Assembly (NCBI GenBank): GCA_964361825.1
Contig: CAYICB010000003.1
Location: 2,643 to 66,642 of the forward strand
Length of the DNA stretch: 64,000 nt
Source of the DNA: an uncultured Candidatus Saccharibacteria bacterium
Lineage (GTDB): Bacteria > Patescibacteriota > Minisyncoccia > Phycocordibacterales > JACOZG01
Reading direction: 5' to 3'
The notes under the pieces are model-generated. The model was not told the DNA's origin and made no database searches. It worked only from the letters and a program-made list of their open reading frames with translations. Both the position numbers and the translations under genes were made by a program. Positions 11,037 through 59,088 of the stretch are shown in pieces (position 1 is the stretch's first letter; each line of letters starts with the position of its first letter).

Positions 11037-12788
11037 ATGTGGTTAGACTCGGGGAAAGTCAAACAATTTCTCGTTGACTCTGATTTGGTTAGTGCCAAAG
11101 ATTTTACTGAAGCGGAGGCGGAGGCGAGTCAGGACAATAAATCATTGGAGGAGGTTTTGCTCAATTCCGGCAAAGTCTCGGAAGAAGATTTCCGTCGAAT
11201 GAAGGCTTATTTGCTCGGCATTCCGTATATTAGTTTGTCTAAGCTCAAGGTTGACAAAGAAATTTTGTTTTTGGTGCCCGAGCCAATTGCTCGCAAGCAT
11301 AATATTGTGGCTTTCGCGAGAAGTGATAAGGGTCTAGAGGTGGCGATGCTTGATCCGGAGGATCTCCAAGCGATTGAGTTTATTAAAAAAGGGGTGGGGC
11401 TCAAGATTTTGCCTCGGCTAACCGATACCGAGTCAATAAAAACCATTCTCTTGCAGTATCAGAAGAGTTTGAAGGCCGAGTTTGGCGATATTATTAAAAC
11501 CGAGGCAGGTAAAATTGGGTTAGTGCCCGAAGAAGCGGGCAAAGAGGTGGGTGAGGGTGAGCTTAAGAAATTAGCCGAAGATTTGCCGGTGGTGCGAATT
11601 GTCGACACCTTGCTCTCGCATGCGATCACCCAAAAGGCCTCTGATATCCATATTGAGCCCTTCGAAACCGAGGTGGTGGTGCGTTATCGGATTGATGGCG
11701 TTTTGCACGATGCAATGATTTTACCCAAGAATGCTGGTTCGGGCATTACGGCGCGGATCAAAATTTTGGCCAATTTGCGCTTGGACGAGAAGCGTTTGCC
11801 CCAAGATGGCCGGTTTAAGATTGAAGCGGCGGGGAATAAGGTGTCTTTTCGCGTTTCGATTTTGCCGACCTATTTTGGGGAGAAAATTGTGATGCGTTTA
11901 CTCCCTGATTCTTCGCGCGGACTTACCCTAGAGCAAGCGGGCTTCCACGGTTTAGGTTTGGAGCGAGTGCATGAGGCAATGCGGGGCACGGTGGGGATGA
12001 TTTTGGTCACTGGCCCTACCGGTTCGGGTAAAAGCACCACACTCTACACTATGATGGATATTCTTAATACGCCGGATGTAAATATTTCGACCATTGAGGA
12101 TCCAATTGAGTATCAGATGCCGCGGATCAATCAAACGCAGGTAAAACCAGATATTGGCCTCACTTTTGCTGCCGGCTTGCGCTCGCTGGTGCGCCAAGAC
12201 CCCGATATTATTATGGTCGGTGAGATTCGTGATAAAGAAACGGTGACGCTGGCCATCAATGCCGCGCTCACTGGCCACTTGGTACTCTCTACCCTCCACA
12301 CCAATTCGGCCGCCGGCACGATTCCGCGTTTGCTAGATATGGGAGCCGAAAGCTTCCTCATTATTTCTACGGCTAAGTTGATTGTGGGTCAGCGCTTGGT
12401 GCGTAAATTATGGCCGAGCAAAGAGGCTTACACCCTTTCGGAAGCTGAGCTTAAGAGTTTGGCGGCTAAGGTGGATCTTGATCGGATGCTTGAGCTTTTG
12501 CGGGCGGAAAGGGTGGTGAAGGAGAAGGCGAATTGGAAAGATATTCCTTTTTACCGCGCGAAGTCGGTGCCCGATTGCCTAGAGGGTTTCCAAGGTCGAG
12601 TGGGAATCCATGAGGTGCTGATGATGTCGTCCTCACTTAAAGAGTTGGTGATTGCCGGAGCTACCGCCGAGAAAATTGAGGCTCAAGCCAAAAAGGAAGG
12701 GATGATTACCATGCTCGAAGACGGCGTGTTTAAGGCGGTGAGTGGCGTGACCACCCTAGAGGAGGTGCTCCGCGTGGTTTCGGAGTAA
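11037..12788 (+). CDS. pilB: type IV pilus assembly ATPase PilB / GspE family
   Basis: GSPII_E N-terminal domains, Walker A GPTGSGKSTTLY, Asp/His boxes. Confidence 0.9.
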   Translation: MWLDSGKVKQFLVDSDLVSAKDFTEAEAEASQDNKSLEEVLLNSGKVSEEDFRRMKAYLLGIPYISLSKLKVDKEILFLVPEPIARKHNIVAFARSDKGLEVAMLDPEDLQAIEFIKKGVGLKILPRLTDTESIKTILLQYQKSLKAEFGDIIKTEAGKIGLVPEEAGKEVGEGELKKLAEDLPVVRIVDTLLSHAITQKASDIHIEPFETEVVVRYRIDGVLHDAMILPKNAGSGITARIKILANLRLDEKRLPQDGRFKIEAAGNKVSFRVSILPTYFGEKIVMRLLPDSSRGLTLEQAGFHGLGLERVHEAMRGTVGMILVTGPTGSGKSTTLYTMMDILNTPDVNISTIEDPIEYQMPRINQTQVKPDIGLTFAAGLRSLVRQDPDIIMVGEIRDKETVTLAINAALTGHLVLSTLHTNSAAGTIPRLLDMGAESFLIISTAKLIVGQRLVRKLWPSKEAYTLSEAELKSLAAKVDLDRMLELLRAERVVKEKANWKDIPFYRAKSVPDCLEGFQGRVGIHEVLMMSSSLKELVIAGATAEKIEAQAKKEGMITMLEDGVFKAVSGVTTLEEVLRVVSE

Positions 12789-22446: not shown

Positions 22447-23406
22447 ATGATAAGAGATTTTGATCGGTGGAATAAACGGAAAAAAGAAATTCAAACAGCC
22501 CTTCCAAAAGGAAACTTTTTCTATAAAGAAGGTGAAATTTGGTGGTGTGGACTTGGTGTGAATCTTGGAGTGGAAACGGACGGGAAGCATGATAACTTCG
22601 AGCGACCGGTTTTAATTATTAAAGTTTTTAATCGAGAGATGGTTTGGGTTTTGCCAGTGACTAGTGTTTTTCACCAAGCGCCATTTTATTACAAGTTTGA
22701 TCATGGTGGAGAGGATCAGTGGGTGGTCTTATCTCAAATTAGAACAGTAAGTACAAAAAGATTGTTTAGGAAAATCAGGGTATTAGACGAAACTGATTTT
22801 GAAAAAATTAAAGTTTTAGTAATTGATTACCTTAAAAAACGAAACCCCGCCGTGAGGCGGGGAATCTCGGAGCCCGAAGGCAATAATGGTTCTAGTCTAA
22901 TCGATGAGAAAGAGCTTGTCAAGCCGGTTATCCCCAATCAGCCTAAAATTATTCTCTATACCGATGGTGGTTCGCGGGGGAATCCGGGTATCGCTGGGGC
23001 CGGAGCCGTGATTACTGATGAGGCGGGGAAAGTGATCAAAGAAGCGTCGAAGCCGCTTGGGATTACGACCAATAATGAGGCTGAGTATCAAGGGGTAATC
23101 TTGGGTCTCGAGACAACTAAGAAACATTTTGGCCCGTCTATGGGCCGGGCAAGTAAAGAGAAAATTCGCGATTTAGACATTACGCTCAAGCTCGATAGTG
23201 AACTGGTGGCCAAGCAATTGCGGGGCGAATATCAGATTAAAGAAGATAATCTTGGTAAACTCTTCCTCAAAATTTGGAATGCCCGCGTCGCCGACTTCCC
23301 TAAGCTCACCATTACCCATATCCCGCGCGAACAAAACTCCGCCGCCGATTGCCTCGCCAACGAAGCGATGGATGCCCAAGAAAAAGCCCCAAAACCCTTA
23401 TTTTAA
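22447..23406 (+). CDS. fusion protein: N-terminal MazF/PemK-fold domain + C-terminal RNase HI domain
   Basis: N-terminus GEIWWCGLGVNLGVETDG..RPVLII...LSQIRTVSTKRL matches MazF/PemK; C-terminus ILYTDGGSRGNPG..TNNEAEY..D is RNase H. Confidence 0.75.
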   Translation: MIRDFDRWNKRKKEIQTALPKGNFFYKEGEIWWCGLGVNLGVETDGKHDNFERPVLIIKVFNREMVWVLPVTSVFHQAPFYYKFDHGGEDQWVVLSQIRTVSTKRLFRKIRVLDETDFEKIKVLVIDYLKKRNPAVRRGISEPEGNNGSSLIDEKELVKPVIPNQPKIILYTDGGSRGNPGIAGAGAVITDEAGKVIKEASKPLGITTNNEAEYQGVILGLETTKKHFGPSMGRASKEKIRDLDITLKLDSELVAKQLRGEYQIKEDNLGKLFLKIWNARVADFPKLTITHIPREQNSAADCLANEAMDAQEKAPKPLF

Positions 23407-30280: not shown

Positions 30281-30700
30281 ATGCCGACAGTTAATCAATT
30301 AATTAAGAACCCTCGCCGGGCCGTGCGCGTGAAGAGCCGCACGGTTGGCTTGGCGAATGGCTTCAACACCAAGAAGAGCCGCCCCATTTTTTACCCCTCA
30401 CCATTTAAGCGGGGAGTTTGTGTGCAGGTTAAAACGACGACACCGAAGAAGCCAAACTCCGCGGTGCGGAAAATCGCTCGGGTGCGCCTCTCTAATGGGA
30501 TGGAGGTCACCGCCTATATTCCCGGTATTGGTCACAATCTCCAAGAACACTCGGTGGTAATGATTCGTGGCGGTCGGGTGAAGGACCTTCCCGGCGTGCG
30601 TTATCATATTGTGCGTGGTCGATATGATTCATCCGGCGTAGATAAGCGGATGAAGGGCCGCTCGCTCTATGGAGCCAAGAGACCAAAGAAAGGCAAATAA
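30281..30700 (+). CDS. rpsL: 30S ribosomal protein S12
   Basis: PTVNQLI..PKKPNSA motif. Confidence 0.95.
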
Positions 30701-31201: not shown

Positions 31202-33343
31202 ATGAATCGCGATTATCCGCTCGAGAAGGTTCGGAATTTTGGAATTATTGCCCACATTGATGCGGGCAAAACTACGGTGAGCGAAAGAATCCTTTTCTAC
31301 ACCGGCGTCTCACACAAGATTGGCGAAGTGCATGAGGGCGATACGGTGATGGACTGGATGGAGCAAGAGCGCGAACGCGGGATTACGATTACCGCCGCGG
31401 CCACCACCTGTTTTTGGACCCCAAGTTATGCAGCCGGCGACCTCACCAAGAAGCATCGTTTTAATATTATCGATACGCCCGGTCACATTGATTTTACGAT
31501 TGAAGTAAAGCGTTCTTTGCGCGTGCTCGATGGTGCGGTGGTGGTCTTCGACGGCGTGAGCGGCGTCGAGCCGCAATCAGAAACCAATTGGCGCTATGCC
31601 GATGAGGGTAAGGTGCCTCGCCTATGCTTTATCAATAAACTAGACCGGATGGGCGCCTCCTTCGAATTTTCTTATGGCACGATTCTCGATCGGCTCACCA
31701 AGCAGGCGGTGCGTTACCAAATTCCGATTGGGCTTGAGGAAAACTTTGCTGGTGTGATCGATCTTTTGCAGAAAAAGGCTTATGGCTTCGAGGGTGAGAA
31801 GGGCCAAACGATTAAAGAAATTCCGATTCCCTCCGATTTGCAAGCCGAGGTTGATAAATATCATGCTGAATTAGTGGAACGCATTGCCGAGACAGACGAT
31901 GCGCTCATGACCGAGTATTTAGAGGGCAAAACGATTGCTCCTGATGTGCTTAAGGTCGCCCTGCGGAAGGCGGTGATTGCTAATAAGATTGTGCCGGTTT
32001 TTTGTGGTTCGGCGCTTAAGAATAAGGGGGTTCAGCTTGTGCTTGATGGAGTGGTGGATTATTTGCCTTCGCCGCTCGATATTCCGCCAACAAAAGGAAT
32101 TGATGAGCGCACGGGTGAAGTGGTGGAGCGCTTGCCTTCTGACGAGGCGCCTTTTGCCGCTCTCGCTTTCAAAATTCAAACTGATCCTTTTGTGGGGCAA
32201 CTCGTTTTCTTCCGGGTTTATTCGGGCAAGATTGAGGCCGGTTCATATATTTATAATACCCGCACGCGAACCAAAGAGCGGGTGGGTCGGATTGTGCGTT
32301 TGCATGCCAATGAGCGAGAGGATGTGAAGGTGGTTTATGCCGGAGAAATTGCCGCGACCGTGGGCTTGAAGGATGTGAAAACCTCCGACACTTTTTGCGA
32401 TATTGATAATCCGATTATTCTTGACCAAATTGTGGTGCCGGAGCCAGTGGTCTCGATGAAGATTGAGCCGAAGACTAAAGCCGACCAAGAGAAAATGGGC
32501 ATGGCGATGAAGAAGCTCTCCGACGAAGACCCAACTTTTAAAATTAAATCTGATCCAGAAACTCTTGAGACTATTATTTCTGGGATGGGTGAATTGCATC
32601 TTGAGGTGCTGGTAGAGCGGATGAAGCGCGAATTTGGCGTGGAGGCTAATGTGAGCAAACCACAAGTGGCTTATAAGGAAACAATTACCGCCGAGGCCGA
32701 AGCCGAAGGGAAGTATATTAAGCAAAGTGGTGGCCGTGGTCAGTATGGTCATGTGCGTTTGCGAGTGAAGCCGCTTAAACCGCTCGAGGAAGGGGCGAAG
32801 ATTCCGAAGAATGTGACCCGCGAGCCCGGTTTCGAATTTATCAATGCGATTAAAGGTGGCGTGGTGCCACAAGAATATATTACGCCGGTGGAGAAGGGGG
32901 TGCGTGAGGGGATGGAGCGTGGCGTGGTCGCCGGCTTTTTGCTCGTCGATATCTCGGTCGAGCTTTATGACGGCTCTTATCACGAGGTGGATTCTTCAGA
33001 AATGGCCTTCAAGATGGCGGGCTCGATGGCTTTGCAAGAAGCAGCGCGGCGCGCTAAACCCGTTCTTCTAGAACCTATTATGAAGATAGAAGTGATTGTG
33101 CCGGAGAAGTTTATGGGTGATATTACCGGGCATCTCAACTCTAAGCGCGGGCAGATTGAAGGGATGGAAGATCGCGGTAATGCCAAGGTTATTCGCGCTA
33201 AAGTGCCACTGGCCGAGATGTTTGGTTATGTCACCACTCTCCGCTCGCAAACCGAAGGCCGCGGTTCCTTCAATATGGAATTTGCCGAATACGCCATCAT
33301 TCCCAACAATGTGGCGCAGAAGATTGTGGAAGCGCGGCAGTGA
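31202..33343 (+). CDS. fusA: elongation factor G
   Basis: G-domain [17 protein letters not shown]; 713 aa. Confidence 0.95.
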
Positions 33344-33351
33344 TTTAATTT

Positions 33352-33978
33352 GTGATTAGCAAATGGCTTAAAAAGTTGTTTGCTTGGCGTTTATCTGGGG
33401 CCCGAAGGGAGAAGTTTGAAATAAAAGTTAGACCGTTTAAAGAAAAAATCTTTCGTGATTTGTTGGGCAAAGAAATTTTGGAACTCGGCGCCGGTGCTGG
33501 GGTAAATGTGCGTTATTATGCTGGTGCCAAGTTTGTTTATTTGGTTGAACCCAACCTAGAGATGAGATCTTATTTAGAGAAAAGATGCCAAGCCGAGAAA
33601 TTGCCAAGCAAAATTTTAACTGACCAAGCAGAAAATTTATCTCTCCCAGATCAATCGGTGGAGGTAGTGATCAGCTCTTTTGTTCTCTGTAGTGTGAAAA
33701 ATGTGCCTAAGGTGTTAACTGAAATTGCTCGAGTCCTCAAGCCCGGCGGGAAGTTTATCTTTGTAGAACATGTGGGAGCTAAGACGGGAATAAGGGCCAC
33801 AATGCAAAGAGCGATAAGGCCACTCTGGCGTTTTTGGTCTGATGGTTGTGATTGTTGTCGAAACACCGAGATCTTGATTCGTCAGGCGAATTTGTTTTCA
33901 AAAATTGAGTTACAAGAATACCATCAAGTTCCTAGCTTTATCGCTCGACCATGGATTTTGGGTGTAGCTTTTAAATAA
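33352..33978 (+). CDS. class I SAM-dependent methyltransferase
   Basis: motif I LELGAGAG, VLKPGG motif; inserted between fusA and tuf. Confidence 0.75.
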   Translation: MISKWLKKLFAWRLSGARREKFEIKVRPFKEKIFRDLLGKEILELGAGAGVNVRYYAGAKFVYLVEPNLEMRSYLEKRCQAEKLPSKILTDQAENLSLPDQSVEVVISSFVLCSVKNVPKVLTEIARVLKPGGKFIFVEHVGAKTGIRATMQRAIRPLWRFWSDGCDCCRNTEILIRQANLFSKIELQEYHQVPSFIARPWILGVAFK

Positions 33979-34666: not shown

Positions 34667-35872
34667 ATGGCAGTAGATAAATTTGATCGTAATAAGCCCC
34701 ATGTGAATGTGGGCACCATTGGTCACGTTGACCACGGCAAGACCACGCTCACCGCGAGTATTTTGCATGTTCTCGACCTCAATAAAGACAAGGGCTATGG
34801 CGCTCGAGTTGAGGGTATTGACGGTATCGATAATGCTCCCGAAGAGAAGGCTCGAGGTATCACCATTGCCCTCCACCACTCGGAGTATTGGACGCCAAAG
34901 CGTCACTATGCCCACATTGATGCGCCCGGTCATGCCGATTACATCAAAAACATGATTACCGGTGCCGCCCAAATGGATGGCGCGATTATTGTGGTGGCCG
35001 CTCCAGATGGCGCGATGCCGCAAACGCATGAACACATTTTGCTGGCTCGCCAAGTGGGTGTGCCAAAGATTATTGTTTTCCTCAACAAAGTAGACATGGT
35101 CGACGACAAAGAGTTGGTTGACTTGGTAGAAGCCGAGGTTCGCGAACTCTTAACTAAACACGGTTATGATGGCGCCAATACGCCCATTATCCGCGGTTCT
35201 GGTCTTAAGGCCCTAGAAGCCAAGAGCGCTGATGATGAATATGCTAAGAAAGTCCTTGAGCTTGTTGACACCCTCGACACCTTCATGCCTGATCCAGTGC
35301 GGGAGACTGATAAGCCCTTTTTGATGCCGATCGAAGACATTTTCTCGATCGAAGGTCGCGGTACGGTGGTTACTGGTCGGATTGAGCGCGGTCGGGTAAA
35401 AGTGGGCGAAGAAGTCGAGATTGTGGGTATTAAGGATACGGCCAAAACCACGATTACCGGTATCGAAATGTTTAATAAGCAACTCGATGAGGGTCTGGCT
35501 GGCGATAATGCCGGTATTCTTCTTCGGGGTACCAAGAAGGAGGATGTAACTCGTGGTCAGGTGCTCGCTAAAACTGGTTCGGTTACACCGCATACTGAAT
35601 TTACGGCTGAAGTTTATATTTTGAAGAAAGAAGAAGGTGGCCGTCATACGCCATTCTTTACGGGCTATAAGCCACAGTTCTATATTCGAACCACGGATGT
35701 GACGGGTGAAGTAACGCTCGATGAAGCGGTAAAGATGGTCATGCCCGGTGATACCGTTACCTTTAAGGTTAAGCTGGTGGCGCCAGTGGCTCTTGAAGAA
35801 AAGCAACGCTTTGCGATTCGTGAGGGTGGCAAAACCGTAGGTGCTGGCGTGGTCACTAAGATTACTGCCTAA
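34667..35872 (+). CDS. tuf: elongation factor Tu
   Basis: [18 protein letters not shown] motifs. Confidence 0.95.
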
Positions 35873-49554: not shown

Positions 49555-50919
49555 ATGAAAATCACTTTTTGTGGTGGCGCCGGCACAGTCACCGGGTCCA
49601 ATTTTTTAGTTGAAGAATCGACGGGTGAGGGCAAGAAGTTTTTAGTGGATTGCGGTTTATTGCAGGGCGGCAAAATTTGCGAAGAAGACAATTTCAAACC
49701 TTTTGCTTATGACCCCAAAGATATTACGGCCATTTTTATTACTCACGCCCACATCGATCATATTGGCCGTTTGCCGCGCTTGGTGAAGCAAGGTTTCCGT
49801 GGCCAGATTTATTCTACGGCGCCCACCAAGGCGATTGCGGAATTAAATTTGCTCGATAGTTTGGGGGTGTTCCAAAAAGAGGCGCGGAAGAGTGGCCGCG
49901 AAGAATTGCTCTATCAAGAGGTTGATGTGGTTGAAACAATTAAACACTGGCAGACGGTAGAGTATCACGAAGCGATCAAATTTGCTGACCTCACGATTAG
50001 CTTGCTTAATGCGGGCCATATTTTGGGCTCGGCGATGGTCGTTTTTTCTCGTGGCGGCAAAAAATTGGTGTTTACTGGTGATTTGGGCAATTCTCCTACG
50101 CCGCTTTTACCAGATACGGAAATTATAAATGATGCTGACTATTTGGTAATGGAGAGTGTGTATGGTGACCGACTTCATGAGGCTAAAGCGGAGCGTAAGC
50201 GGCGCCTAGAGGCGGTAATTGAGGAGGTGGTGGGGCGGGGTGGAGTGCTGGTGATCCCCGCCTTCTCGATTGAACGCACCCAAGAACTATTATTTGAAAT
50301 TGAGGAGTTGATTGAACGCTCGCGGGTGCCGGTGGTGCCCGTTTTTCTCGACTCACCGCTTGCGATTAAGGTCACTCGGGTTTACCGCGATTATCTCGAT
50401 TTTCTCAACCTTTCCGCCCAAGAAAAAGATTCTTTGAGCGACGGCATTTTCCGTTTTCCTAATTTACACCAAACTTTAACGACCGAGGAATCCAAGGCCA
50501 TTTTGGGCTTACCGGATCCAAAAATTATTATTGCCGGTTCGGGGATGAGTAATGGCGGAAGAATTCTTCATCATGAGCGCCATTATTTGGGCGACCAGAA
50601 AAACGCTCTGCTTTTGGTGGGTTATCAGGCAGGAGGGAGTCTGGGGCGCTTATTGCTTGAGGGCGCTCGCTCGGTAAGAATTATGGGTGAGGAGGTGATG
50701 GTGGCGGCGCAAATTATTAATCTCACCGGCTATTCGGCCCACCGTGATTCTGATGGCCTATTTAACTTTGTGCGTCAAAGTGCCGACACCTTAAAACGGG
50801 TTTTTGTGGTTTTGGGTGAGCCCCGCTCCGCTTTGTTTTTGGTCCAGCGCTTGAGAGATTACTTGGGTCTTGAGGCCAGCGCGCCCCAAGCTGGCGAAAG
50901 TGTGGACTTGCCCTTATAA
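49555..50919 (+). CDS. MBL-fold beta-CASP ribonuclease (RNase J / CPSF-like)
   Basis: HAHIDHIG, beta-CASP motifs; 454 aa. Confidence 0.75.
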   Translation: MKITFCGGAGTVTGSNFLVEESTGEGKKFLVDCGLLQGGKICEEDNFKPFAYDPKDITAIFITHAHIDHIGRLPRLVKQGFRGQIYSTAPTKAIAELNLLDSLGVFQKEARKSGREELLYQEVDVVETIKHWQTVEYHEAIKFADLTISLLNAGHILGSAMVVFSRGGKKLVFTGDLGNSPTPLLPDTEIINDADYLVMESVYGDRLHEAKAERKRRLEAVIEEVVGRGGVLVIPAFSIERTQELLFEIEELIERSRVPVVPVFLDSPLAIKVTRVYRDYLDFLNLSAQEKDSLSDGIFRFPNLHQTLTTEESKAILGLPDPKIIIAGSGMSNGGRILHHERHYLGDQKNALLLVGYQAGGSLGRLLLEGARSVRIMGEEVMVAAQIINLTGYSAHRDSDGLFNFVRQSADTLKRVFVVLGEPRSALFLVQRLRDYLGLEASAPQAGESVDLPL

Positions 50920-55857: not shown

Positions 55858-56145
55858 ATTAATTTTTTATTTTGCCAACAAACACAAAAAGCCCACCGCC
55901 AGGCGACAACCTTTCGGTCGTCCACACCTCTTTCGAAGCGTGACCAATCACGGTGAACCTAGACGATGGGTTCTTTACCCGTGATTGGTTTTTTAAGCCA
56001 TGCCCAACTAAACAGTTGGGTTTAGGCCATTATTAAATTGTGCTTACAATTTAGCATTAAATTCGCACAGAGAAAACAACCCGTATCAATTATATGATCG
56101 AGTGGTTTACCATGAGCGAGTTCGTCTTTCAACGAACGAGTCGAA

Positions 56146-56524
56146 TGGAGATGCCGGGAATCGAACCCGGGTGCAGAAAGAGATCTCAAGTAGGTCTACA
56201 AGCGTAGTTGGTTTGGTGTTGTCGGGAGTGGCATAGAAAGCCAACAAAAACGCACACCCCGTAGCTCTAGGTTTTCGTCTCTCGCCTCGAGCGCGGGCGG
56301 GAGCTTATTCCGAATTTATGACACCACTTTGATCTTATCGGAAGTCAGACCAAGTGATGTCGCTTAGGCTAAAGCGTAAGCGAAAGGAAGAGGATATGGC
56401 GAAGCCACACCTTCTCCCTCGTTAGATAAGTTGGCACTTATCAGTGTGCCGCGGTTTTACGAGTGGGCGGCAACTCGGCTTGCATAGCAAGAGAGTGATC
56501 CTTCTGTCGAAGCCAATCATCCCC
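56146..56524 (-). ncRNA. ssrA: tmRNA (SsrA)
   Basis: 5' GGGGATGATTGGCTTCGACAG; 3' T-arm CCCGGGTTCGATTCCCGG + acceptor CATCTCC with G3:U70 (Ala identity); internal frame ends ..PFAYALA-TAA; immediately downstream of smpB. Confidence 0.88.
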
Positions 56525-57026: not shown

Positions 57027-58946
57027 GTGATGAAAAAGATGTCAAAATTGAATAAAACCAGTCCGCGAGGCTTTGGTCAATTTGGTCGCCAAATTGCTTC
57101 CACGGTCTTGATTTTTCTCGTTTTGCTCGGAATCTATTCTGCGGTGACCAGCAATCAGCAAACCGCCAAAGAGCTAACTTTATCAGAATTAGCCCAAGCG
57201 ATTAATCAGGGTGAGGTGGCCAAAATTGTGATTCAAGGCGATGCTTTAGCTGTGACCCTGCAAACCGGGGAAGAGCTTCGGTCGCAAAAAGAGGCCGAAA
57301 CTTCGCTCTCCGAAAGTTTGGCTAATTATGGCGTTTTGCCGACTAGTTTGGGCGGGGTTTCGGTGGCGGTGGCTAATCCCTCGGGCCTTACTTTTTGGTT
57401 GCTCAATTTATTGCCTTTTATTTTACCAGCGATTTTTGTACTTCTGATTTTTTGGTTTATCTCGCGCCAAGTGCGCGGGGCTTCGGTGCAAGCGTTCTCT
57501 TTTGGTCAATCGCGCGCGCGAGTAATTGACCCCAATGATCAGTCGCAGAAAATTACTTTCAAAGATGTGGCTGGCGTAAAGGAGGCCAAAGAAGAATTGT
57601 TAGAAATTGTCGATTTTCTCAAAAGTCCAAAAAAGTTTTTAGACATTGGCGCCAAGATTCCCAAGGGTGTTTTGCTTATTGGTGCGCCGGGGACCGGTAA
57701 AACTTTGTTGGCGCGCGCGGTGGCGGGTGAAGCGGGTGTGCCCTTCTTTTATCTCTCGGGTTCGGAGTTTGTTGAGATGTTTGTAGGCGTGGGCGCTTCG
57801 CGCGTGCGCGACCTCTTCAAAATGGCCAAGAAAACGGCCCCAGCGATTATTTTTATTGATGAAATCGATGCCATCGGTCGTCATCGCGGTGGCGGCATGG
57901 GTGGCGGCAATGATGAGCGCGAGCAAACACTTAATCAAATTCTCGTGGAGATGGATGGCTTCGAGCCTAATGAAAAACTGATTGTAATGGCGGCCACCAA
58001 TCGGCCTGATGTGCTCGATATCGCGCTTTTGCGCCCCGGTCGCTTTGACCGTCGCGTGGTGCTCGATAAGCCGGATCTTAAAGATCGTGAAGAAATTCTT
58101 GGCATTTATGCCCGCAAGAAACCGCTCCACGAGGATGTGAACTTGCGCGTCATTGCTCAACGCACGCCCGGTTTCTCTGGCGCGGATCTCGCTAATGTGA
58201 TGAATGAAGGCGCGATTTTGGCGGCGCGCGAGAATCGCAAGCAGATTACGCAATACGATCTCATTCGCTCGGTGGAGAAGGTAATTCTTGGTCCGGAGCG
58301 CAAGAGTCATATCTTGTCTGAACGAGAAAAGAAAATCACGGCTTACCACGAGATGGGCCATGCGCTCATTGGCTCGGTTTTGCCGCATTCGGATCCGGTG
58401 CACAAGGTCTCGATTATTTCTCGCGGGCATGCGGCGGGCTACACGCTTAAATTGCCGTTCGAAGACCGCAAACTGGAGTCGAAGAAAGAATTCTTGGATG
58501 AAATCGCGGCGCTCCTCGGTGGTTATGCCGCCGAGCAACTGATTTTTGGCGATATTACTACCGGCGCTTCTAATGATCTTGCGGTGGCGACCTATACGGC
58601 GCGTAATATGGTCACCAAGTATGGTATGAGCGAGAAGCTCGGGCCGGTGGCCTTCGACACTGGCGGCGAACGCCACTTGGTGAGCGGCGGGCAACTAGTG
58701 GAGAAGGCGTCATCGGAGGCGGTGTCGGCGCTCATTGATCAAGAAATTTCTAAAATTCTTAGCGAAGGTCTGACGCGCGCTAATCAAGTGCTTACCGATT
58801 ACCGCGCCGCTCTCGACGCGATGTCGGAAGAACTGATTAAAGTCGAAACCATCGATCGCGAAGACTTCGATAAACTGCTTATTTTGAACGGCATCAAGCC
58901 GAAGGAGGATACTAATAAGGTTGTGGATAACTTATCGGCCCGGTAG
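57027..58946 (+). CDS. ftsH: ATP-dependent zinc metalloprotease FtsH
   Basis: two N-terminal TM, AAA Walker A/B, SRH, HEMGH zinc site. Confidence 0.95.
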
Positions 58947-59006
58947 GATTCGAACCTACAACCAGCCGTGTATAAGACGGCGGCTCCACCATTGAGCTAC
59001 GGGCCG
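58935..59006 (-). tRNA. tRNA, anticodon UAU (Ile, AUA-decoding), no encoded CCA
   Basis: cloverleaf: acceptor CGGCCCG/CGGGCCG, D GCTC..GAGC, anticodon stem GCCGT/ACGGC with loop CTTATAC, T-arm GTAGG-TTCGAAT-CCTAC; overlaps ftsH stop by ~11 nt on the opposite strand. Confidence 0.7.
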
Positions 59007-59088
59007 GAAGGTGTTACCATAATAATGGCCAAAATATACTGACTGGTCAATCTCAAGTTTTTGGCTTTATTACTTAATTTTTCTTTAA

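Follow-up and report, generated by a model that had tools for sequence, protein, structure and literature searches.

The window analyzed here, a stretch of 64,000 nucleotides from contig CAYICB010000003.1 (assembly GCA_964361825.1), carries on its minus strand a genuine, well-formed tRNA gene with the anticodon UAU, the 3′ end of which overlaps the end of the protease gene ftsH on the opposite strand. With a probability of roughly 0.85, we read it as a functional isoleucine tRNA whose encoded UAU anticodon reads AUA codons and which, to judge from comparison with related genomes, is ancient and vertically inherited in the Paceibacteria (Parcubacteria/Minisyncoccia) branch. U34 of this tRNA would form a Watson–Crick pair with the third-position A of AUA. 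The gene and its anticodon lie at the following positions:

58935 to 59006, minus strand: tRNA-Ile(UAU), 72 nt, with C1-G72, A73 and no encoded CCA (ARAGORN, Rfam, folding and an alignment of 70 orthologues).
58972 to 58974, minus strand: anticodon U34-A35-U36 within the loop CUUAUAC (58970 to 58976), read from the sequence; ARAGORN gives anticodon position 33.

A first-pass annotation, made from the sequence alone, had described a minus-strand cloverleaf with a 7-bp acceptor stem and a 5-bp anticodon stem, the anticodon UAU in the loop CUUAUAC and no encoded CCA. All of these features were recovered when we applied ARAGORN, the Rfam RF00005 covariance model and minimum free energy (MFE) folding. 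In the window, ARAGORN calls a transfer-messenger RNA (tmRNA) and, as the only other RNA gene, tRNA-Ile(tat) at 58935–59006 on the minus strand. The Rfam match covers the same positions and the full length of the model (1–71), and its score of 67.9 bits (E = 1.2e-12) is far over the gathering score of 29, which, together with the cloverleaf, places the gene in the RF00005 family. The MFE fold of the 72-nt sequence is a cloverleaf in which all stems are purely Watson–Crick: an acceptor stem of 7 bp (C1-G72, G2-C71, G3-C70, C4-G69, C5-G68, C6-G67 and G7-C66), a D stem of 4 bp (GCUC/GAGC) with a short D loop of 7 nt, an anticodon stem of 5 bp (GCCGU/ACGGC, G27-C43 to U31-A39), a variable loop of 5 nt and a T stem of 5 bp (GUAGG/CCUAC). 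The 7-nt anticodon loop reads C32-U33-U34-A35-U36-A37-C38 and thus has UAU at positions 34–36 (58974–58972), U33 and a purine at position 37, the loop of an AUA-reading tRNA-Ile. The discriminator A73 at 58935 is followed by TAA, and no alternative fold puts another triplet at the anticodon position.

The structure is retained among relatives. In an alignment of 70 orthologues, consisting of the window and 69 related loci, 99.7% of the cells are paired in the cloverleaf, compared with 70% in column shuffles and 29–46% in slid controls. Compensatory, two-sided changes were found in 16 of the 21 pairs, and the covariation score is 0.728 versus 0.173. The anticodon loop is CUUAUAC in 68 sequences and CUUAUAU in two, while A73 and U12:A23 are present in all 70, C4:G69 in 57 and C29:G41 in 25; the window tRNA has all four of these elements. 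To judge from this alignment, the tRNA is under strong structural purifying selection and its anticodon loop is near-invariant. Only nine of the 70 orthologues encode CCA, making its addition the norm in the lineage. The isoleucyl-tRNA synthetase (IleRS) of Escherichia coli reportedly uses A73, C4:G69, U12:A23, C29:G41, A38 and A35-U36-A37 as identity elements, as worked out by Nureki et al. in 1994. Of this set, A73, C4:G69, U12:A23 and A35-U36-A37 match conserved features of the aligned tRNAs, but C29:G41 is not conserved and A38 is replaced by C38; the set might not hold for the IleRS of the candidate phyla radiation (CPR).

Two positions are unusual for a bacterial elongator tRNA-Ile. These are the first pair, which is C1-G72 in 42 of the 70 orthologues and G1-C72 in the others, and C38, present in 68. 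They may be linked to RNase P processing, to recognition by IleRS or to the tuning of codon affinity.

The conservation extends to genomic position. We fetched 80 ftsH loci, each from a different GTDB species and with FtsH identities of 59–74%, and scanned them for tRNAs. The relatives are metagenome-assembled genomes labelled as Vogelbacteria, Nomurabacteria, Taylorbacteria, Kaiserbacteria and Paceibacterota, all from the Paceibacteria/Parcubacteria part of the CPR, and the gene content of the window is consistent with a placement in Paceibacteria, with type IV pilus genes, a compact ribosomal protein cluster, and SmpB and tmRNA by ftsH. A tRNA-Ile(TAT) lies near or downstream of ftsH in 69 of the 80 loci. 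It is present in every one of the 47 loci whose sequence extends 5.5 kb or more beyond ftsH, and the 11 loci lacking it end 2 to 4505 bp past that gene. The order ftsH(+)-tRNA-recG(−) is seen in 49 of the 70 loci of the alignment, with recG no more than 300 nt from the tRNA in 17 of them. Relative to ftsH, the tRNA is on the same strand in 49 of the 70 and on the opposite strand in 21, the window among the latter. The ancestral site of the tRNA is thus the convergent gap between ftsH and recG, where it has been inverted repeatedly.

The codon that this tRNA would read is in use, and as isoleucine. AUA makes up 43 of the 14,986 codons in the 49 open reading frames (ORFs) of the window, or 2.9 per 1000 and 4.5% of the Ile codons. 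The first-pass annotation had suggested looking at the ribosomal proteins, and AUA is indeed found there: the genes containing it include rplD (L4) and rplO (L15), as well as fusA (elongation factor G), secY and map. Across the ftsH genes of 81 genomes, the residues aligned to 825 AUA codons were isoleucine in 58%, valine in 15%, leucine in 13% and methionine in 3% of cases. This profile matches that of AUU and AUC (61% isoleucine, 2% methionine) and is unlike that of AUG (63% methionine), indicating that AUA is decoded as isoleucine. In several relatives, AUA is the commonest Ile codon of ftsH (33 of 59 in locus L017 and 31 of 49 in L006, for example), also where the GC content is moderate.

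The surroundings of the gene in the window include the following features:

57030 to 58946, plus strand: ftsH, ATP-dependent zinc metalloprotease of 638 aa from the ATG at 57030 (TIGR01241 FtsH_fam, 791.7 bits).
58935 to 58946, not assigned to a strand: convergent overlap of 12 bp, ftsH TCG-GCC-CGG-TAG being complementary to tRNA positions 73 to 62 (ORF end and tRNA end).
59022 to 59050, minus strand: sigma-70-like promoter match TTGACC-17-CATTAT, ending 16 nt upstream of tRNA position 1 (one consensus match, 1.0 expected by chance).

The overlap, put at about 11 nt in the first-pass annotation, measures 12 nt and takes in the three final codons of ftsH and its TAG stop (58944–58946). An exact protein record exists for the 638-aa product, and an independent ENA assembly of a replicate sample (L082) has the identical overlap, so it is no assembly artefact. 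ENA contigs matching the window derive from groundwater of the Hainich well H43 (0.1-µm filter fraction). FtsH homologues align only to about residue 627–636, leaving the overlapped tail unconserved. We considered and rejected a regulatory meaning of the overlap: the distance from the ftsH stop to the tRNA varies among relatives from −12 nt, in the window, through −10 nt, in a relative with the tRNA on the same strand, up to 5246 nt, with tRNAs on both strands, and only the unconserved tail of FtsH is touched. In the nearest relative found, L084, the place of the tRNA and recG 3′ of ftsH (and 11909–11979) is taken by a peroxiredoxin gene and a large Peripla_BP_6/ABC transporter array. These different genes and the missing tRNA mark the junction as prone to rearrangement, and we regard the 12-bp overlap as an incidental, extreme case of a distance that varies. 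In this genome, tRNA and recG are now about 6.4 kb apart, and the block between them encodes secreted peptidoglycan-binding proteins, an extracytoplasmic function (ECF) sigma factor and a PKD/dockerin protein. The promoter match is a weak candidate for a promoter of the tRNA's own, being at chance level.

On the other side of the tRNA, a LOOT RNA (RF03000; 92.7 bits, gathering score 46.4) is found at 55905–56028 on the minus strand. It follows the tmRNA (56143–56524) on the same strand at a distance of about 115 nt, and no LOOT RNA was detected in the nine related ftsH/tmRNA loci examined for it.

An encoded UAU anticodon had been called rare in bacteria, and the published counts are indeed few. 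Bacterial tRNA-Ile(UAU) was found in 17 genomes in the tRNAscan-SE 2.0 survey, among them Bifidobacterium and Neorickettsia (PMC8450103), and in 19 species of tRNADB-CE (PMC4013482). It is further known from Mycoplasma mobile and other Mollicutes (PMC3575796) and from haemoplasmas and 'Ca. Spiroplasma holothuricola' (PMC5861454), and a 2026 preprint still speaks of "rare cases." The description does not carry over to this lineage, in which all informative loci have the gene; on this comparative evidence the UAU tRNA is the rule here and the normal reader of AUA, not a rarity. In metagenome data, Taniguchi et al. had noted 371 unique tDNA-Ile(TAT) sequences whose origin was unknown (PMC3575796), and CPR bacteria are a plausible source of those.

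The known systems differ in what accompanies the tRNA. The canonical pair of tRNA-Ile2(CAU) and TilS serves the same task of reading AUA as isoleucine and avoiding AUG, and its tRNA is similar in having A73, C4:G69 and U12:A23. It carries C34, whereas the tRNA described here has U34 and so is no substrate for TilS, and there is no tilS beside ftsH. In another domain, the eukaryotic genes for tRNA-Ile(UAU) usually contain introns. The anticodon of the eukaryotic cytoplasmic tRNA-Ile(UAU) is modified to pseudouridine (PMC11947777), and in the archaea Nanoarchaeum equitans and Korarchaeum cryptofilum, UAU is used for AUA as here and replaces the agmatidine system with its modified C (PMC8450103). 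The best-studied counterpart is M. mobile (PMC3575796), where an encoded UAU likewise reads AUA as isoleucine and U36 is followed by A37, the site of N6-threonylcarbamoyladenosine (t6A). There, the absence of tilS, the unmodified U34, the adaptation of IleRS at Arg865 and the rejection of AUG by the ribosome come from experiment (Taniguchi et al. 2013). The M. mobile group consists of sporadic species in a class that bears TilS; the present tRNA, which has C38 in its loop, is instead conserved over a class-level clade of the CPR. Bifidobacterium, in which the trait is genus-wide, and Neorickettsia also have tRNA-Ile(UAU), in their case instead of tRNA-Ile2(CAU), and combine it with a lack of tilS and a type-2 (eukaryote-like) IleRS (PMC3575796; PMC8450103). 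In Lactobacillus plantarum and L. casei, by contrast, tRNA-Ile(TAT) is documented together with tilS (PMC3575796).

These last cases bear on the further claim of the first-pass annotation that an encoded UAU implies a different decoding strategy, which is no more than plausible. We searched for tilS with a PP-loop regular expression (SGGxDS) and a three-sequence TilS hidden Markov model/phmmer search in ORFs of at least 70 aa from the window and 83 loci (0.99 Mb). Neither the window, nor the remainder of the 74.7-kb source contig, nor the 0.99 Mb of related loci gave a tilS-like ORF, the one match being GuaA-like, and no tRNA with a CAU anticodon was found in the window, elsewhere on the contig or in loci L001–L086. 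Beyond the window, the contig encodes HU, alanine racemase, tRNA-Gly(UCC), a PKD protein, recG and HicAB. In many phyla, tilS often lies directly upstream of ftsH or of hpt-ftsH. No PP-loop or TilS-like ORF occurs in any of the 81 ftsH loci. A TilS profile search of a database of 5.8 billion proteins gave, among the 120 matches listed, only proteins near the E. coli and Aquifex queries (Enterobacteria and Aquificae). No ORF for a class I aminoacyl-tRNA synthetase (HIGH/KMSKS), which would have allowed IleRS to be typed, was seen in the window or the loci examined. In the literature searched, we found nothing linking tilS, lysidine or tRNA-Ile(TAT) to Patescibacteria, CPR or Parcubacteria, and no tilS/K04075 entries in the supplementary tables of the CPR genomics papers examined.

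From the universal retention of the tRNA with an invariant loop, the heavy use of AUA in relatives and the lack of tilS and CAU tRNAs in 0.99 Mb, we lean modestly toward tRNA-Ile(UAU) being the sole decoder of AUA, replacing tRNA-Ile2(CAU) and TilS-made lysidine as in M. mobile or Bifidobacterium. The broader proposition that the whole Paceibacteria/Minisyncoccia class lost TilS and lysidine and reads AUA solely with a tRNA-Ile(UAU) having C32 and C38 and often C1-G72 is tentative, and we place it slightly short of even odds. A still somewhat weaker, though serious, contender is that the UAU tRNA is a redundant or auxiliary reader beside TilS and a tRNA-Ile2(CAU) encoded elsewhere in the genome, which would leave the decoding strategy unchanged. 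The coexistence documented in Firmicutes (PMC3575796) speaks for such redundancy, as does the presence of TilS in 98.18% of surveyed bacteria, where it is termed evolutionarily stable (PMC6063277), and the sequence inspected amounts to about 75 kb of this genome plus the ftsH neighborhoods of relatives. An auxiliary tRNA would, however, be expected to occur patchily, yet it is found with an invariant anticodon loop in all 47 informative loci; many relatives use AUA as a major Ile codon; and the 81 ftsH loci lack a tilS-like ORF at a site where tilS is often a neighbor.

The position at a synteny breakpoint raises another explanation, in which the tRNA is an insertion site of a mobile element or arrived horizontally on a phage or island and the overlap with ftsH is a scar. 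The 6.4-kb block that here stands in place of a recG within 300 nt, the other genes after ftsH in the nearest relative and the flips of tRNA orientation all agree with this, but the tRNA is orthologous and syntenic in the order ftsH-tRNA-recG over dozens of species, and no integrase or recombinase was seen in the inserted block, making such an origin very unlikely. Even less credible is that the gene is decaying or mis-assigned, either as a pseudogene or as a tRNA charged with methionine, so that AUA would mean Met. Its unusual C1-G72 and C38, its overlap with a protein-coding gene and the rarity of AUA in this genome could be taken that way. The perfect cloverleaf and its covariance score, the covariation and invariant functional positions over 70 species and the retention of C1-G72 itself among orthologues point to the contrary, and the covariation and the alignment of AUA with isoleucine rather than methionine effectively refute this idea.

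Several observations nevertheless weigh against a functional, AUA-reading tRNA-Ile that has taken over the task in this organism. AUA is rare in its genes and absent from its ftsH, so the demand for the tRNA is low. Position 38 is C, in place of the A38 recognized by the E. coli enzyme, and no terminator was found for the tRNA gene, in addition to the chance-level promoter match. The nearest relative found, L084, with an FtsH 89% identical, has no tRNA in the 10 kb downstream of ftsH, which shows that the two genes are not always linked; if it has a tRNA-Ile(UAU), that gene lies elsewhere than after ftsH. The absence of tilS and tRNA-Ile2(CAU) holds for the neighborhood of ftsH, a small and non-random part of each genome, and the examples of coexistence and the near-ubiquity of TilS mentioned above count on the same side.

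A working tRNA-Ile(UAU) could be produced and used as follows. The gene sits in the convergent ftsH-recG gap, in which its orientation has flipped repeatedly, and here it faces ftsH with 12 bp shared. Transcription would run on the minus strand, and a promoter of the gene's own may lie about 16 nt upstream; the 5′ end would be processed by RNase P and, as no CCA is encoded, the 3′ end would have to be trimmed and CCA added post-transcriptionally. After formation of t6A at A37, the tRNA would be charged by IleRS. Were it the sole decoder, AUG might be avoided in the manner of M. mobile, through adaptation of IleRS and the ribosome with an unmodified U34; through a type-2 IleRS like that of Bifidobacterium and Neorickettsia; or through a modification of U34, and these options could combine. 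That the C32/C38 context of the loop tunes codon affinity is speculation.

Ribosomal protein S12 is encoded in the window (30281–30700, plus strand) and retains both decoding-site loops, PNSA and [11 protein letters not shown]. Relative to E. coli S12, about 15 residues are inserted at its N-terminal end ([22 protein letters not shown]). Changes in S12 and 16S were proposed by Taniguchi et al. as a route to the rejection of AUG (PMC3575796).

The scan of relatives also revealed a second unusual tRNA. Four related Paceibacteria carry a tRNA-Ser(ACU) with A34 (L013:10173–10259, L015:11470–11554, L018:12260–12346 and L025:11748–11834, all on the minus strand), divergent from a tRNA-Ser(GCU) about 70 nt away. 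Its Rfam scores are 54–56 bits, compared with about 44.5 bits for the GCU neighbors in L013 and L025, where these were reported. A34 in tRNA-Ser is extremely rare in bacteria, with three counted in tRNADB-CE (PMC4013482), and tRNA-Ser(ACU) would call either for A34-to-I editing of tRNAs other than tRNA-Arg or for decoding by an unmodified A34.

Three protein-coding features of the window, away from the tRNA, were also seen. An ORF at 33352–33978 (plus strand) encodes a class I S-adenosylmethionine (SAM)-dependent methyltransferase of 208 aa (Methyltransf_11, E = 3.6e-20) and is inserted in the str operon between fusA (31202–33343) and tuf (34667–35872). Another, at 22447–23406 (plus strand), combines a PemK/MazF toxin domain (residues 27–122) with an RNase H/RVT_3-like domain (167–307). 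The third encodes a beta-CASP metallo-beta-lactamase ribonuclease (49555–50919, plus strand) that is nearer to the models of archaeal aCPSF1 (409 bits) and type VII CRISPR Cas14 (288 bits) than to RNase J, both scores being below the cut-off. It adjoins a SLOG/LDcluster4 gene, an arrangement kept in the nearest relative, and is possibly an enzyme of RNA 3′-end processing.

For the window alone, the result is the correct annotation of an expected, lineage-typical gene, and its interest lies at the level of the lineage. The class-wide conservation of tRNA-Ile(UAU) appears to be under-appreciated, although any annotation pipeline calls such tRNAs. Discrimination between AUA and AUG has long been seen as a weakness of the genetic code, and nearly all bacteria are said to solve it with lysidine made by the essential TilS. 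While tRNA-Ile(UAU) is usually treated as a curiosity of a few reduced genomes, it is here fixed, syntenic and selected over dozens of Paceibacteria species. Should TilS really be missing there, what counts as a rare exception would be the usual state in a major part of bacterial diversity; with a class-wide loss, this would be by far the largest bacterial clade with such decoding, Paceibacteria/Minisyncoccia being among the largest bacterial radiations. A clade-wide co-adaptation of IleRS, the ribosome or both against misreading of AUG would then be implied. The absence of TilS would also bear on its role (TIGR02432) as a universal marker, and the clade would offer many natural variants of IleRS, ribosome and tRNA for studying how the misreading of AUG is avoided.

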